A stretch of DNA of 64,000 nucleotides from Candidatus Saccharimonadia bacterium (GCA_038244585.1 JBBRTI010000001.1:37-64036), one strand, 5' to 3'; positions 36,001 through 42,000 are shown, counted from the stretch's first letter. Program-made: the numbers.

Positions 36001-39000
36001 TCGTGGGCGACCTAGTGATACCGACAGTCCACCATCCTGTGAAAATCCAAGAACTGCTGCAGGTGCTGGTCCGTGCAGGCGGTGGCGGCCTTGGCAGCGC
36101 CACCGCTGGCGCTCCGTTCCATAATGAGCCCGGCTCGACAGTTCGGTCCTAGTGCGCTACGATTTGTCCATCGGACTTATGTCTTAATTATTGTTGTGAA
36201 GGAGTTACCCGTGCCGAAAGAGAATGACGATCTGGATCAGGTTAAGCCTGAAGATAAGGCGGCTACGCCGGAGAAAAAAGCCCCATCGGCCAAGCCGGCC
36301 GCTAAACCAAAAACCGACAAGACGACCGCATCAACCGAGGCCACCCCAGAGGTAGTAGATGCCAAGTCGGTCGAGTCAGCCGAGACCGCGCCAGCCGAAG
36401 CTTCCGCCGCAGTGTTCGCGGGCGCAAAAAACTCCGACAGGCGCTTTAAGTTACCGCACAACTGGCGCCCGCTGGCCATCAAGGTTGCAGCAGCGCTGGT
36501 CGCGGTGTTCGCAGTCGCAACCATCATCTTCGGCGTGCTGATCTACGGCTACCGCAGTGAGAGCCCGGTCGTTTATGGCGCCGCCAAGGTCATTCCGTTC
36601 CCGGTCGCCAACGTTAACGGCCACTTCGTTAGCTACGCCGATTATCTCTTCCAGCTGAATGCCAACAAGCGCGGCTACCAGCAGAACGCTAAGCTCAACA
36701 ACCAGCCGGCAGTCGATTTCAAGACGACCGAAGGCAAGAAGATACTCACCCAGTTCCACACTTCTTCCTTGGAGAAGGTGAAATCGGACGCTGTCGTCGC
36801 CCAGCTGGCCGCCCAGAAGAAAATCAAAGTCACAGACAAGGACGTCAGCACCCTCATCGACCAGCTGTACAAGAACTACGGCGGTAAGGACACTCTCCTA
36901 AAGACACTCAAGGACATCTACGGTTGGGACATTAACGACCTCAAGAAGGTCGTCCGCAATCAGCTGCTGGAGCAGAAGCTGTCCGAGAAGGTCACCTCCG
37001 ACCCAGTCATCGACGCGCAAGCCAAGTCTAAGGCTGCTGATGTCGCCAAGAAGGTCAAAGACGGTGGCGACTTCGCAGCCCTGGCCAAACAGTACTCACA
37101 GGCCTCTGACGCAGCTTCAGGCGGCGACTTGGGCACCTTCACCAAAGGCCAGGTGTCGGATGAAATCCAGAAGTCCGTGGACGCATTGCCAGTGGGCGGC
37201 GTCTCCGACCCGGTCAAGGACCAATACGGTTACGAGATCATCAAGGTGACGGAGAAGACGGCTGATAACGCCAAAGCCTCCCACATCCTCATCAAGACCA
37301 TCGACTTCAATGATTACATGAGTCAGCAGATTAAAAAGGCTAAATACAAGGCTTACATCAAGGCCTAACCGGTACCCGTCCGAAACAAGAGCCGCATTTT
37401 GCGGCTCTTGTTTATTCTGCAGCGCATCAAACATAAAAAGCTCCGACCCGGAAAGGGTCGGAGATATGCTGGGCGGACCCGGCCGTCAGAATCCCAGACT
37501 AAGGTGAAGATTGGCTCCAAAGAACAGGAGCGGCCACAACAACACCGCCAGGATGAACGACAAAATCTGCGAGATGTTGGTGAATACGGCGTAGCCGTGT
37601 TGGCCAGCCACGACCAGGCCGAATACCAACCAGATAATTGAACCTAACGAAAAGGGCCTTCGCATGATGAATCTCCTTCTATATTGGTATAACTACGGCT
37701 TGAACGTACATCAATAGTACCTCTAACACGAGAGGCATGCTTTGGAAATACGTCTAAGCTCTTGGCTTCGCAAAGCCATTATATTTGTGACATTTGAGGT
37801 AGGTTATTCGGTTGGGACCGCCTAGGGCGTCGAGAGCTGGAAATAGTTGCCGTCGGCGTCGGCGAAGGTTGCCAGCCACTATAATAATCTGGTACATGTC
37901 ACAGAAATGAGTAAGAAAACCAAAATGCTTGTATCGGTTCAGCCAATTCATTCATGACTGAACCTTGATAGGGTGGTTAGGTTGCCGGAAGCCGGTAACC
38001 ATCGTTGCTCATTAGGGCGATGCCGTCCCAAACGGAAAGTTGACTGCCCATGAAGTCGATTACGATTAAGCGTGAAACGAGCACTCTGCGACGGATAGCG
38101 GTTCCAATCCTGACAGCCACGGCCTCGTCGGCGGTGACCTACGCCACCCACGAGCTCATGCGCCGTCGCTCCGGTCGGACTGGTCGGGCACATGCCATGC
38201 CAGGCGCGTTAGATCGGCTGATAAGCCGTGACAGTTGGGATACGCCTATCAACCAACGCCCGCAGCTACTGTTCAACAAGGGCAACATCTCGCAGATGCT
38301 CGGCAGCTCCGATCAGCTCGATGCCGACTCGCCCGCGGCGGCTATTGCCATGATGGGCTTCCTCGCGGAGCATCAGAATGACCTTCAGCTCTACGCCCGG
38401 TCACGCCTCACGAAGCTGCTCGGTACCAGCGACGGTGCTATCCGCAGCGATCGGGCGGCCGTGGGCGAGGCGAAGCAGTTCGCAACCACCAGGGAGACTG
38501 TGCGGCCCAGCGACGAAGAACTGACGAGCCAGCTTACCCACCTCGAGTGGACGTTCCGGCGTTCCATGCATGGAGCGCATCCAATCAAGCGTGCTAAGCT
38601 CTCTAGTCTGGCAACGGACCTTTCCGACGTGGCCGCAGAGCTTAGTAAGCTCAACAGCCAGCGGCGTCAGGCCAGCACCCGCATCATACTGGCTTATGTC
38701 TACTTGCAAATGGGCAAGAACGAGCAGGCCAACCAGGAGATGAGCCAGGCGCTCGTCCTCATCGGCAACATCTATGGAAGCCCGGAGCTGATAAGGCTCT
38801 CCACCGAGGTAAACGGCCAACAGATTATCGACCTCACCTACGAGGGCGCGCCGGATGGGTCCAATCAGCAGCAGCATGCACACGATCTGGCGGCAAACAG
38901 CAACAACTGACCATTTGGGACCCGCACGATACCGGCGGGCTGGGGAATTCTCCCCAGCCCGCCTTTTCCAACTAACAGCATTGCATAAAGATGCCCCTCC

Positions 39001-42000
39001 TGGGCATCTGGGTCGAAATGACTGTTGGATGCCCCGAGGGGGTGCCCCATAACGGGCGAGTATTCCCGCTACGCCGTAGGTTGTGAGTTGGATTTGGCTA
39101 AAACGCGGGGTGTTGAACAAGGTTGGGGTTCTCTCGAACTTCTTCTTCAATTCTGTCTAACGCGATACCGCAAAGATCCTTACGCAGACTTGCACCTGTT
39201 TTGTCAGGATATTTGTCGGCACGCGCTACGGCGTCCGTCGACATTTCAATTCTGATGATGCTTTGCTCACGGCATGATTGAGCGTGTTCTCCTGGTGCCA
39301 AGGTTTCTTTGTAGTCGACAATGAGGATTGCAACCCAACCTTGGCGTTTTTCGCTGAAGACGTAGCACGTCGGACGGATCCGATGGTCGGGTACCCTGTC
39401 TCCCAATTGGTAGGGGATACCTTCACCGTCGAGCAAGCGTATGAAACGCCGCTCAATGCGTGTCCTCTCTGACCGATGTCGACGGGGTCGATTGTTAGAA
39501 ATTCGACGTTTTCCCATTAACATTGCCTGCTTTCGGCTCGTAGTAGCGGTTGGTACTTCTCGAGGCACCATAGGAAGGCCAACCCTTCAAGAAACTGGAG
39601 TTGAATAAAACGAAACAACCACTCGAGTAGAATGGTCGTCATACTATACAATCAATAGTAAATAAGTGCAACGGTATATCTGATTAGGGGGTGCTAATGA
39701 ACAATTTCAGTGTTCAAAAACAAGAGCCTTAGATAGCATCTTTTTCGAATAATAGCTTGGCGGGACATAGAGACGGACTTCCGAACGGCTACTACACTCG
39801 AAGTCCAAACATTTCAGCAAACTATAAGTATAAAAACTGGCGGTGATGCGTACAGCCATGCCCCGCCTCTGGTGCCTTTCTTTGGTACCATCTCAAATCT
39901 ATAATATATACAAACGTGTTCGTTCAGGCTTGTGTTTGCAAAGTAGTTACTGGGCGAGACTGCATGATGTATAAAGTTTGTCCAAAAAAATGCCCACTCA
40001 ATATCCTGAGGCTTTCCATAGTAGGCCTACGTCCATGGGTAGTTTATTTTGGTTCTATTATAGCCGCAATTTTAGTACTAGCCGCAATAATCAAGCCTTG
40101 TACATCATCTGTAAAATCCCTGCCTGGCCCCTCACTATCTTGTTCCGAGCTGAGCAGTAAATCCGCAAGGACTCCAAAGTCGCCGCGGGTACTCGGTAAG
40201 TGTTTTCTGCCCTTCGGTGACTTCCATGTCTCAGCCGGGGAACGTAATTCATTACGGGCAAATATATCTTTAAGTTCTAGTTCGAATCTAATCCAAATGT
40301 CTGATAATGCGTCTGTTTCGTTATAGTTCGATCCTTCTCTAGGAACGGGAATTTGGTGGTCCCTGATGGGACGTACTTGATCCTGATAAGCAGCTAATGC
40401 TGCCCCGAGATAAAAGGAAGCACTTAAAGTCCGGTATAAGTTTTCCATACCTTGAATTTGCAGGGTTCGGATTTCGATTGCCTGACCTCCCCCTATCACA
40501 GCATCGGATGAACGATTGAGAACGCCGGCATCTACACCTGATCCTGTCCAGATGGGTTTATTCGCTGCAAATGGTCGATCTAGCCTGTAGGAACTCGTGG
40601 CCCATCCAGAAGATTCAAGTGCCCTCGCAAGTACTAACGCTCCCTCTTGACCGGCTTGGCTTCGCTCTTGGTGGATGCCGCCGATATTTAAATGCATCGG
40701 GAAGTAGTGATCCTCTAGATTAATTAAATCAAGGTCCTTAAGAGCTTGCACCTCGCGAAGTAACATTCTGTAATTGCGTGCCGGCCGCAGTGCTACTTCC
40801 CAATAATCCGGGTCGGAATCATCGCGCGGAATTCCTAGTTCGCGAACCTCCTCAAAGAGCTTGAATTTTTCTGCAAGGATTTGTTTTTGTTCTACCGGAG
40901 GGAGCAGTTTTTGTTTCTCAGTAAGAAGAGTCGGGTTGTAGACTTCTATCTCAATTCCTAGAGTAGGGGCGTGGGGGTGCGGGTTCTGTTCAAATTTTTC
41001 AGCTTGAACTAGATATTGAGCTTTTATGTCTCCTTCCGGTGATGCTGTCTTAATCATGCTCCTAATATCTGCCAACCGGTCTGTACGCACTTTTGCGTCC
41101 AGTGGTTGTTTTTCAGAGCGTACCATCATTTCCTGCGCTATTTTTTTAATCTGAGCGCTGGTTCTATCGACTGTCTCTCGATATTTTTGTGCCTCGCTTG
41201 CGGCAGACTCCGCGTGGCGTTCTTTGGTAGCCTGTCGCCATGCTTTATATTCAGGAGATAGGGTAGATTCAGTATCAGGATCCTTAGCATCTAACATAGA
41301 TGGTTGATATCGGGCAGATATATTGTTTACGGTCGATGCTTCAGCTTTTGGGCTTGGTTCGATTGCCCCAGTTGTAGAACTCTCGAATTCTGCCGTATAA
41401 GCGTGAGGAAACGATGATTCGGGTTCAGATTGGTTCTCCATGCAAAAATTATAACACTTAGGCTAATAAGCAAAAAAACACCTCAATTGAGGTGCTAAGT
41501 ATAATTGCAATGGCGGGCTCGACCGGTTTCGAACCGGCGATCTCCTCCGTGACAGGGAGGCGTGATAACCACTTCACTACGAGCCCGTGTGAGGGGTTTA
41601 GAACCGCCATATCGTACCAAAATAATGGGCTAGGGGCAAGCGGAAAGGACGGGAGGTGGCTAGGCGCGCGGAATATTAAGTGGTAAACGGTGCTGCTGAG
41701 CCTGGTTGGCTGACCACACGAGGCGGCGGACTACGCTCATTGGAATCTCGCCGCGGGCTGGGAGGGCGGCCTTGGCCTGTAGCGGGGAATCGACGAAAGC
41801 ATGGCGGGCGCCAGCTTCGACGATGTCATGGACTGCGGACGGGTCCCATTCATTCCACCAGGCGCCAACCTCTAGGTGTCGGTCTTGGGCCTTATGTATG
41901 AGTTCCGGCGTTATATCGCCGGCATAGGGGTGGTAGCTTTTGAGCTTATGAGCCGCGGCCCATTCCAAGCTTTCATCGCTGACTGTCTCGACTAGTAGCT

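Follow-up and report, generated by a model that had tools for sequence, protein, structure and literature searches.

Positions 40043-41510 of the window (the whole 64-kb stretch of DNA analysed here, from a Candidatus Saccharimonadia bacterium) are probably best explained as a self-contained, acquired single-gene unit, which occupies a slot 3′ of tRNA-Asp and encodes a protein that belongs to the ligase superfamily with the glutamine synthetase (GS) fold. Carboxylate-amine ligases with this fold cover core metabolism (glutamine, glutathione) as well as protein tagging by PafA/Dop, and novel chemistry has repeatedly been found in newly added branches of the superfamily. The proteomes of CPR bacteria (Patescibacteria) are largely uncharacterised, and with the predicted fold and intact site described here, proteins so far called 'hypothetical' become enzymes that can be assayed directly. 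On a small scale, the locus is also a clean case of genes moving without leaving recombinase footprints: two unrelated contexts share a 1.47-kb unit that has a putative terminator and promoter of its own, and in a relative the tRNA slot is filled by an alternative gene.

An earlier, sequence-only reading of this DNA had described a compositionally mosaic 3.9-kb island beside the tRNA. The ORF and tRNA calls place every feature that it listed where it had put them, and its GC contrasts hold for both spacers and for the 286-aa and 465-aa genes (Table 1), against a window mean of 0.544. Horizontal acquisition at the tRNA is upheld for the 465-aa gene, by its GC3 and by the different gene found in the slot of a relative (L008), but not for the rest of the island. 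Across the 55 ORFs that are 150 aa or longer, GC3 has a mean of 0.642 (sd 0.074). The 465-aa gene has the lowest value of all, 0.386, about 3.5 sd lower than the mean, and the Arg-rich gene has the second lowest, 0.487. As a single island the region does not survive, however: the Arg-rich gene is part of the backbone in L008 (88% nucleotide identity), and the 286-aa gene, with a GC3 that shows no anomaly, is probably not part of the acquired unit because its composition is native. The 286-aa protein gave weak TPR- and coiled-coil-like matches alone and forms a single-member cluster. For the Arg-rich protein there was no match in Pfam, NCBIfam, PHROGs, PADLOC or the PDB, and one other homologue cluster in total. 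The host has a GC content of about 54% and carries Mpa/ARC, the Pup-proteasome ATPase, at 62109-63857. A 59-aa two-TM ORF, which lies after the PPIase terminator and before the first spacer, was absent from the earlier reading.

Table 1. Features of the region between the PPIase gene and tRNA-Asp (positions are those of the window).
Feature	Position	Strand	Remarks
PPIase/SurA-like gene	36073-37368	+	ORF call
Perfect hairpin after PPIase gene	37383-37413		
59-aa two-TM ORF	37486-37665	-	good Shine-Dalgarno
384-nt spacer	37666-38049		GC 0.469
286-aa ORF, orphan helical protein	38050-38910	+	GC 0.603, GC3 0.739
Backbone common to L008	39086-39770	-	88% nt (blastn); Arg-rich gene and ~200-nt upstream; right slot edge
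Arg-rich ORF, 157 aa, orphan	39098-39571	-	NCBI start at 39517 gives 139 aa
472-nt spacer	39572-40043		GC 0.419
AT-rich segment, 273 nt	39771-40043		GC 0.443; window strain only; outside L001 unit and L008 backbone
465-aa ligase-family ORF	40044-41441	-	GC 0.466
Catalytic core, residues 138-465	40047-41030	-	motifs, then C-terminal helical bundle
N-terminal extension, residues 1-137	41031-41441	-	low-confidence model, alignment
5′ module, 69 nt	41442-41510	-	hairpin, T7, extended -10
tRNA-Asp(GTC)	41511-41586	-	ARAGORN; Rfam 66.7 bits

Only 40043-41510 behaves as a transferable unit. The sequence L001 shares 40043-41517 alone with the window (91% nucleotide identity), its flanks are unrelated, and its copy sits in a tract of about 10 kb with low GC3. 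In L008, nucleotides 1-50 match 41560-41511 at 100% identity, and divergence sets in immediately after the CCA-proximal end of the tRNA, so that the 3′ end of tRNA-Asp is the left edge of a variable slot. The same 3′ half of tRNA-Asp is there linked to the Arg-rich backbone via a different gene of 261 aa; the gene order of the window is not universal among relatives. A further sequence, L012, comes from another sample and provides an independent junction, joining the 3′ end of the ligase gene to the backbone (Arg-rich, 286-aa and PPIase genes) at 100% identity. The AT-rich segment at 39771-40043 contains no remnants of other genes and no Rfam match. The 465-aa gene is a single horizontally acquired gene adjoining tRNA-Asp.

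The unit appears to bring its own expression signals. Directly after the tRNA lies a terminator-like hairpin (GCACCTC-AATT-GAGGTG) followed by T7, with a terminator scan match at 41496-41477, and then an extended -10 element (TGTTATAAT) and 6 nt (TTTTGC) to the ATG. Because there is no Shine-Dalgarno and the extended -10 lies 6 nt before the ATG, the ligase gene would be expressed from a leaderless mRNA. L001 shares 64 of the 69 nucleotides of the module, and there it is not preceded by a tRNA. The hairpin and T-run may serve as insulation, with the extended -10 placed for the leaderless transcript of the 465-aa ORF.

A classical integrase-mediated island in tRNA-Asp, spanning 37666-41586, would fit the tRNA-adjacent position, the AT-rich spacers and the three orphan genes of mixed composition, but we regard it as extremely improbable. 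The sequence-only reading had suggested looking for a repeat of the tRNA-Asp 3′ end at the far boundary; a search of the 64-kb window with 23 nt and up to 3 mismatches returned the tRNA itself as the sole match. Flanking direct repeats and a transposase were not found, and no integrase or recombinase occurs among the ORFs of the region. With neither a tRNA 3′ repeat nor an integrase, this is therefore not a classical tRNA-targeted integrative island. The native composition of the 286-aa gene, the backbone status of the Arg-rich segment in L008 and the mere 1.47 kb shared with L001 also argue against it. The locus is like tRNA-adjacent islets, or flexible slots, in having alternative, compositionally foreign orphan genes directly 3′ of a tRNA in close relatives, but it differs from them in lacking an integrase, an att duplication and a transposase, and in that the exchanged unit is one gene accompanied by a hairpin and promoter of its own. 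Also very improbable is an assembly artefact, in which populations were joined at the conserved tRNA-Asp and the ligase gene does not truly adjoin it. In its favour, every sequence involved is of metagenomic origin, and two sequence ends fall as expected at assembly-graph forks: L008 starts within the tRNA, and L012 stops 80 bp into the ligase gene. The 5′ junction between tRNA and cassette is without independent confirmation. However, L012 and L008 independently give the same backbone and L008 joins this backbone to tRNA-Asp, hence the order of tRNA-Asp, slot and backbone is seen twice. Furthermore, the GDPD gene beyond the tRNA has a GC3 of 0.66, like the backbone.

The predicted structure and the conserved motifs indicate that the product of the acquired gene has a GS/carboxylate-amine ligase fold with an intact catalytic constellation. 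The AF2 model, built from a 122-sequence alignment, has a pLDDT of 93.7 and a pTM of 0.92, and contains the saddle-shaped core β-sheet with helices on its convex face that is typical of the GS fold. The structure comparison proposed with the sequence-only reading yields GS-fold matches: with Foldseek the top matches in the PDB are GS, 1-naphthylamine GS, PafA and YbdK (probability up to 0.98), and among viral proteins phage 'amidoligase' proteins rank first. Homology to the superfamily rests on predicted structure and motifs, because there is no sequence-profile link to characterised families.

The superfamily motifs are a strand-1 GhExE or Ex[EH], an acidic strand, a strand-4 [HD]x[NH], an Arg on strand 5 and another in the long loop before it, and a strand-6 Ex[RK]x2D (PMC2588565). 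We counted their occurrence in the alignment of 122 family sequences. Strand 1 carries G162-I-E164-I-E166, with the Gly conserved in 118/119 relatives, E164 in 117/119 and E166 in 118/118. E215, on a strand, is invariant (122/122); D210, in the preceding loop, is Asp in 106 of the 122 sequences and Glu in 11, and E230, in the helix after the E215 strand, is conserved in 84%; these are candidates for the acidic residues of strands 2 and 3. The strand-4 motif is H250-L-N252, and H250 is found in 118/122. The sequence-only reading had remarked that the second His of this motif (MHLNIGG, residues 249-255) is replaced. N252 is indeed present, but it is no lesion, as H-x-N fits the superfamily pattern. 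Family-wide, T occupies this position in 84% of the sequences, N in 12% and S in 2%, i.e. the majority falls outside [NH]. R286, in a loop, is conserved in 121/122, and R310, on the model strand 307-310, is Arg in 99 sequences and Lys in 18. On strand 6 (E323-I-R325) the Glu is found in 122/122 and the Arg in 120/122, while position 328 is a variable Q or E and the Asp that ends Ex[RK]x2D is missing. A comparison of the window gene with the L001 copy gives a dS of 0.265 and dN/dS values of 0.12 (core) and 0.19 (whole gene), which shows purifying selection and indicates a retained function.

Given a GS-type fold and these catalytic residues, the enzyme probably uses ATP to link a carboxylate with an amine. 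The concave β-sheet would bind ATP and Mg2+/Mn2+ via E164, E166, E215, H250 and E323, with R286, R310 and R325 stabilising the phosphates. The carboxylate of the substrate would be converted into an acyl-phosphate, and attack by the amine would then produce an amide or isopeptide bond.

The choice of substrate may lie with the N-terminal region. An extension of about 165 aa, absent from YbdK, had been described from the sequence; the extension is real, but the conserved core begins near residue 138. The extension opens with an acidic, disordered head rich in S/T/P (residues 1-60). After it come the charged helices of residues 61-137 (predicted, with low confidence, at 63-108 and 116-132), a part that is homologous to the segment immediately preceding the core in long-form relatives. 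With dN/dS values, window versus L001, of 0.48 for the head and 0.21 for residues 61-137, the extension is coding and constrained. It is variable within the family, and most relatives have a longer helical domain of about 300 aa. Such a variable N-terminal region probably selects or recruits a substrate or partner, and this family-wide variability tilts our guess to a peptide or protein substrate over a free metabolite.

We also weighed other chemistries for the same fold. The earlier proposal of a YbdK/GCS2 match was made from PTLGIEIEVYNP (residues 159-170), which is comparable with the PFTLGIELEMQ of E. coli YbdK. It holds for the GS fold and the motif set, whose catalytic motifs follow one another as they do in E. 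coli YbdK, but not for membership of Pfam GCS2 (PF04107), which was rejected for want of an HMM match. A divergent YbdK/GCS2-type γ-glutamyl-cysteine ligase, or other small-molecule γ-glutamyl ligase, is unlikely. Neither the window protein nor 80 family members match any Pfam model at E<=1, and 10 distant relatives match neither PF04107 nor another GS-fold model at that threshold. An hhalign comparison of the family profile with E. coli YbdK gave a probability of 1.35% over 11 residues, insignificant alone. Structural identity to this group (1r8g, 1tt4; plant GCL 2gwc) is 13% and the C-terminal helices align in part. Intervals between the motifs are about 30% shorter than those in YbdK, YbdK/GCS2 enzymes have His at the second strand-4 position where the family has T or N, and the family lacks the terminal Asp of strand 6. 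N-terminal domains as large and variable as these are unusual in metabolite ligases, and neither a glutathione synthetase nor another pathway partner occurs in any examined context.

That the enzyme is an amidase or deamidase, a Dop-like hydrolase with the same fold and bound nucleotide that cleaves an amide or isopeptide bond, e.g. to remove a modification, strikes us as quite unlikely. With PafA and Dop, loop details decide whether one fold acts as a ligase or as an amidase (PMC7947786), and by this precedent the direction of the chemistry could be either. On the other hand, strand 6 has the E-x-R of GS/GCS-type enzymes and not the [QH]x4D of PafA/Dop (PF03136; 4bjr, 9cku), no Pup-like small ORF or proteasome genes adjoin the window gene, the family occurs in CPR bacteria with no Pup system in the fetched loci, and most superfamily members are ligases. 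Membership of PafA/Dop was rejected on the strand-6 motif, the lack of an adjacent Pup-like ORF and the absence of a Pfam match. We prefer a ligase. A bolder version of this reading combines several steps and is improbable as a whole: the family would be a new GS-fold class that modifies proteins or peptides, its variable N-termini would target particular substrates, CPR epibionts and hosts would exchange its genes as single-gene cassettes, each with a promoter, at a recombination hot spot beside a tRNA, and the enzyme, here in a host that already has a Pup-proteasome ATPase, would attach or take off an amide-linked tag in conflicts of epibiont with host or among other microbes.

Two further groups with this fold offer partial likenesses. 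The Amidoligase_2 (PF12224) proteins of phages and conjugative elements belong to the same superfamily, are likewise often stand-alone and horizontally mobile, and include the best viral structure matches (probability up to 0.98). However, the match is as remote as that to GS (E ~1e-2, TM ~0.35), there is no PF12224 match at E<=1 in the window protein, in 10 distant relatives or in 80 family members, and no glutamine amidotransferase or peptidase partner is present; membership was rejected on the missing HMM match and the remote structural similarity. Compared with glutamine synthetases I-III and γ-glutamyl-amine ligases (PF00120), the window protein is much smaller, has about 10-15% identity, and shows neither the N-terminal beta-grasp domain of GS nor its oligomer-forming elements.

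At E<=1e-3 the family itself numbers 245 representatives, clustered at 50% identity, and no Pfam or NCBIfam model covers it. The three matches in reference genomes are MAGs labelled Patescibacteria, Saccharibacteria and Sungiibacteriota; this is an unannotated family known mainly from ultrasmall CPR bacteria. Neither family members nor the cassette were found on viral contigs. Homologue neighbourhoods vary by lineage (PolX, FtsH/SPFH, CCA-adding enzyme, POR, G6PD/6PGD, PGI), and no conserved partner gene pointing to a substrate emerged across these contexts. The homologues in L003 and L005 adjoin glucose-6-phosphate genes, and the window gene lies 2.4 kb from G6PD/6PGD/pgl. If not a coincidence, this proximity argues for an older linkage rather than a random insertion.

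The 465-aa protein encoded beside tRNA-Asp(GTC) represents a new, unannotated family inside a well-known superfamily, caught here as a mobile single-gene unit. Sequence and profile searches of Pfam, NCBIfam, PHROGs, PADLOC and the PDB returned nothing significant for the three locus proteins or for the family members. For the 465-aa protein itself, Pfam and NCBIfam were empty at E<=1 and phmmer retrieved no PDB chain. Profiles built from 5 and from 122 sequences found no relevant PDB chain either; the best profile match there, adenylosuccinate lyase (E 0.03), covers a C-terminal helix alone. 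A word-indexed search yielded only five relatives. HMMER, run exhaustively with the conserved core, recovered 245 cluster representatives at E<=1e-3, 63 of them below 1e-30. When 80 family members were compared with GCS2, Amidoligase_2, Gln-synt_C, Pup_ligase and other recurring Pfam families, there were zero matches even at E<=1. The absence of such matches, for the protein and for these 80 members, speaks against the YbdK/GCS2 membership that had been proposed from the sequence alone. The strand-1 resemblance to YbdK that had also been noticed is present, but it is insignificant by itself: a local hhalign of the family profile against Escherichia coli YbdK aligned 11 residues (PTLGIEIEVY to FTLGIELEMQ) at a probability of 1.35%, and a global alignment found nothing.

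AlphaFold2 with a 5-sequence alignment gave an unusable model (pLDDT 53.8); with 122 sequences, residues 138-465 were modelled at a pLDDT of 93.7 and a pTM of 0.92. In a Foldseek search of the PDB this model is led by glutamine synthetase (GS), 1-naphthylamine GS, PafA and YbdK (E 5e-3, probability up to 0.98), and in the viral library by phage 'amidoligase' proteins, which are equally remote. The earlier assignment of a GS fold was thus correct, as the confident model and the concordant searches agree. Since none of the 80 members matches any of the Pfam families compared, we assign the protein to the carboxylate-amine ligase superfamily but to none of the families named within it.

The active-site residues largely follow the superfamily definition of Iyer, Burroughs and Aravind (PMC2588565): a strand-1 GhExE, acidic residues on strands 2 and 3, a strand-4 [HD]x[NH], an Arg on strand 5 with another in the loop before it, and a strand-6 Ex[RK]x2D. 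In an alignment of 122 family members the corresponding columns are G162 (118/119), E164 (117/119), E166 (118/118), D210 (106 D and 11 E of 122), E215 (122/122), H250 (118/122), position 252 (T in 102, N in 15, S in 3), R286 (121/122), R310 (99 R and 18 K), E323 (122/122) and R325 (120/122). These are nearly all of the conserved polar positions of the family, and they are located on predicted strands. YbdK carries its motifs in the same order (GIELE, HVH, R, R, EVRvmD), with longer spacers than the family has. Given the superfamily definition and these counts, MHLNIGG is a canonical H-x-N and therefore has no replaced second His, as had been supposed. The true deviation is the H-x-T that forms the family majority at strand 4; in addition, the terminal Asp of the strand-6 motif is missing in the family, with a variable Q or E there.

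The best-supported chemistry would be that of an ATP- and divalent-metal-dependent carboxylate-amine ligase acting via an acyl-phosphate, with specificity presumably set by the pocket and the variable N-terminal region. We lean towards a peptide or protein as the substrate, because the N-terminal domains are large and lineage-variable and because the structure is close to PafA and Dop. The rival reading is a Dop-like amidase instead of a ligase, as the members of the PafA/Dop pair, one a ligase and the other a hydrolase, are not separable by fold and motifs (PMC7947786). The ligase remains the better supported of the two, and the family is now directly testable by biochemistry.

Family members occur in three sizes: long forms (~560-700 aa), in which a helical N-terminal domain of ~300 aa precedes the C-terminal core, intermediate forms (400-490 aa), the window protein among them, and bare cores (~300-340 aa). 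The window protein is 30-39% identical to any fetched homologue, compared with 34-57% among the homologues themselves, and is a divergent branch of the family. Its residues 61-137 align with the segment just ahead of the core in the long forms; residues 1-60 are an acidic, S/T/P-rich, unstructured head. Compared with its orthologue on L001, a 21-kb contig from another sample, the window copy is 89% identical (dS 0.265), with dN/dS of 0.12 in the core, 0.21 in residues 61-137 and 0.48 in residues 1-60. On these ratios the whole ORF, N-terminal extension included, is functional coding sequence. A scan of 185,579 species-representative genomes found three matches, in MAGs labelled Patescibacteria, Saccharibacteria and Sungiibacteriota; it used exact peptide patterns and is biased toward close relatives. 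There is no family match in PHROGs or PADLOC, neither a family member nor the 5' module of the unit on the viral contigs of IMG/VR, and no second paralogue within the window.

The layout of the locus and of the related loci is summarised in the table. The positions read earlier from the sequence are accurate for the ORFs and the tRNA, judging by the ORF list and the tRNA scan. The 59-aa ORF, located after the PPIase gene and before the first AT-rich spacer, is absent from that reading.

Coordinates of features in the window and in related metagenome contigs
Feature	Sequence	Position (strand)	Remarks
SurA-like PPIase gene	window	36073-37368	Pfam Rotamase and SurA_N_3
Perfect hairpin ending the PPIase gene	window	37383-37413	
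Terminator of 59-aa ORF	window	37463-37441	
59-aa ORF	window	37486-37665 (-)	two predicted TM helices; strong Shine-Dalgarno; gene finders also predict it on an independent contig
Spacer, 384 nt	window		GC 0.469; before 286-aa ORF
286-aa ORF	window	38050-38910	GC 0.603
Arg-rich ORF	window	39098-39571 (-)	convergent with 286-aa ORF; 157 aa in ORF list, 139 aa from 39517 at NCBI
Spacer, 472 nt	window		GC 0.419; between Arg-rich and 465-aa ORFs
Unique 273 nt	window	39771-40043	
465-aa ligase ORF	window	40044-41441 (-)	GC 0.466
tRNA-Asp(GTC)	window	41511-41586	GDPD gene next
G6PD, 6PGD, pgl	window	43866-46908 (-)	
Two PucR-type regulator genes	window	56713-59089 (-)	tandem, overlapping
Mpa/ARC proteasome ATPase	window	62109-63857 (-)	full length
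Low-GC3 tract with ligase unit	L001	~3100-13700	
Orphan 261-aa gene	L008	107-892 (+)	
PolX and long-form ligase	L002	1021-4667	
PolX and long-form ligase	L004	2016-5691	
PolX and long-form ligase	L006	3-2611	
PolX and long-form ligase	L007	1-2614	
PolX and long-form ligase	L016	543-4456	
G6PD, ligase, 6PGD	L003	3890-8363	
PGI, ligase	L005	3521-6414	
52-aa Cys-rich ORF	L009	9134-9292	
52-aa Cys-rich ORF	L010	7846-8004	

Native and foreign genes are better resolved by GC3 than by bulk GC among the 55 window ORFs of at least 150 aa (mean GC3 0.642, sd 0.074). The lowest value of all belongs to the ligase gene (0.386) and the second lowest to the Arg-rich gene (0.487); the 286-aa gene (0.739) resembles its neighbours. 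The compositional mosaic noticed earlier is therefore real, but its only strong outlier is the 465-aa gene. The Arg-rich 139-aa orphan has a single further homologue cluster among 5.8 billion, and as it is kept at 88-89% in L008 (a contig of 1.6 kb, from a third sample), it belongs to the backbone in this lineage; it is perhaps an older acquisition. The spacers hold no known RNAs of the Rfam type apart from the tRNA, and no remnants of earlier occupants were found in either AT-rich spacer, the backbone shared with L008 being the sole match.

L001 and the window have 40043-41517 alone in common, at 91% nucleotide identity. The match is limited by the tRNA 3' end at one side and the stop codon at the other; L001 has no tRNA, and its flanks are unrelated to those of the window, where at a dS of ~0.27 orthologous flanks would still be detectable. 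The 69-nt leader is identical to that of L001 at 64 of 69 positions, which is above synonymous-site conservation. It consists, in order, of a hairpin and T-run that match in a terminator scan, an extended -10 (TGTTATAAT), six bases and the ATG, and comparison of upstream sequences found no Shine-Dalgarno. From this arrangement we infer a unit that is probably insulated, self-promoted and leaderless. The L001 copy (GC3 0.40) sits inside a ~10-kb low-GC3 tract bracketed by genes with GC3 of 0.60-0.77, and therefore looks foreign there too. Other products of the tract are dCMP deaminase, an NT5C-like hydrolase, a MazG-like protein, an inositol monophosphatase, a methyltransferase and several orphan proteins. 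The tract may be a foreign island of larger size, rich in genes for nucleotide metabolism.

L008 opens with 50 nt that match the 3' part of the tRNA-Asp at 100% identity, and its final 683 nt correspond at 88% identity to window 39770-39086, which comprises the Arg-rich gene and the region upstream of it. Flanked by these two anchors is a different gene, an orphan of 261 aa that has no match in Pfam, PHROGs or PADLOC and whose layout is that of the ligase unit: a hairpin, a TGn-extended -10, ~6 nt and the ATG. L012, a contig from yet another sample, matches the window at 100% identity over the stretch that runs from the PPIase end to 80 bp into the ligase gene, and so independently confirms the right-hand junction. 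Together, L001, L008 and L012 show a variable slot, limited by the tRNA-Asp 3' end and ~39770, with at least two occupants, of which the ligase unit is one.

The lowest GC3 in the window, the unrelated flanks in L001 and the alternative occupant in L008 bear out a foreign origin of the ligase gene. An assembly chimera at the tRNA is unlikely, as the arrangements in L008 and L012 speak against it. The island beside the tRNA that was seen earlier holds as a foreign gene in a variable slot; its supposed extent and nature do not. A classical integrase-mediated island is contradicted by the lack of a copy of the tRNA-Asp 3' end, looked for throughout the 64-kb window, of direct or inverted repeats flanking the unit beyond short chance matches, and of a recombinase gene at the locus. 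A candidate tRNA remnant ahead of the ligase gene in L001 scored 13 in local alignment against a shuffle mean of 13.3 and was discarded. The stretch of 273 nt that separates the stop codon from the shared backbone is unique and without recognisable remnants. The simplest guess at how the unit moves is homologous recombination via conserved flanks, with the tRNA on one side. Overall, the sequence-only reading was sound in its observation, the fold and the foreign origin, while it was wrong or imprecise on the family membership, on the 'lost His', and on how far the island extends and what kind of island it is.

The full-length Mpa/ARC ATPase reaches 779 bits with TIGR03689, where the cutoff is 505, and 695 bits with mycobacterial Mpa; its presence implies a host of a Pup-proteasome lineage. 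The downstream ORFs scanned (56.7-61.9 kb) include a bactofilin and PucR-type regulators, with no dop, pup, prcAB or pafA; the two regulators carry GGDEF_2 and HTH_30, one with a sugar-diacid recognition domain. The window also encodes DinB, a PilB-type ATPase and oxidative pentose-phosphate genes. The host looks like an ordinary bacterium of a Pup-proteasome lineage, not a reduced CPR genome. If this is true, the family, known otherwise from CPR genomes, has spread across a deep boundary.

Across the fetched family loci there is no universal partner gene. PolX, a family-X DNA polymerase (HHH_8, thumb and PHP domains), lies immediately upstream of the long form in five loci, with a gap of 4-6 nt in the four that show both gene ends. 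These five form one Saccharibacteria-like clade with identities of 43-57%, and the neighbours differ in other lineages, so PolX was rejected as a conserved partner; the pairing reflects either an operon or synteny within the lineage. Just past the ligase, two of these loci have a NUDIX gene, on the same strand in L006 and on the opposite strand in L004. Neighbours elsewhere include a CCA-adding enzyme (L014), FtsH and SPFH (L015) and pyruvate:ferredoxin oxidoreductase (L018). One short form has mobile-looking surroundings, with an integrase, a HerA-like ATPase, methyltransferases and nucleases; those in L009 and L010 are surrounded by unannotated ORFs. Directly 3' of the ligase in these two contigs is a 52-aa Cys-rich ORF (CxxC...C...C, ending in ...DEPAVE; 87% amino acid identity), preceded by an AGGAG of its own. 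This ORF might encode a substrate peptide; as a conserved partner it was rejected, being seen in two closely related AT-rich contigs of one lineage. Glucose-6-phosphate genes, whose proximity to the family may be coincidence or an old linkage, are found near its members in three contexts: the ligase gene lies between G6PD and 6PGD in L003 and after PGI in L005, and in the window it is 2.4-5 kb from G6PD, 6PGD and pgl.
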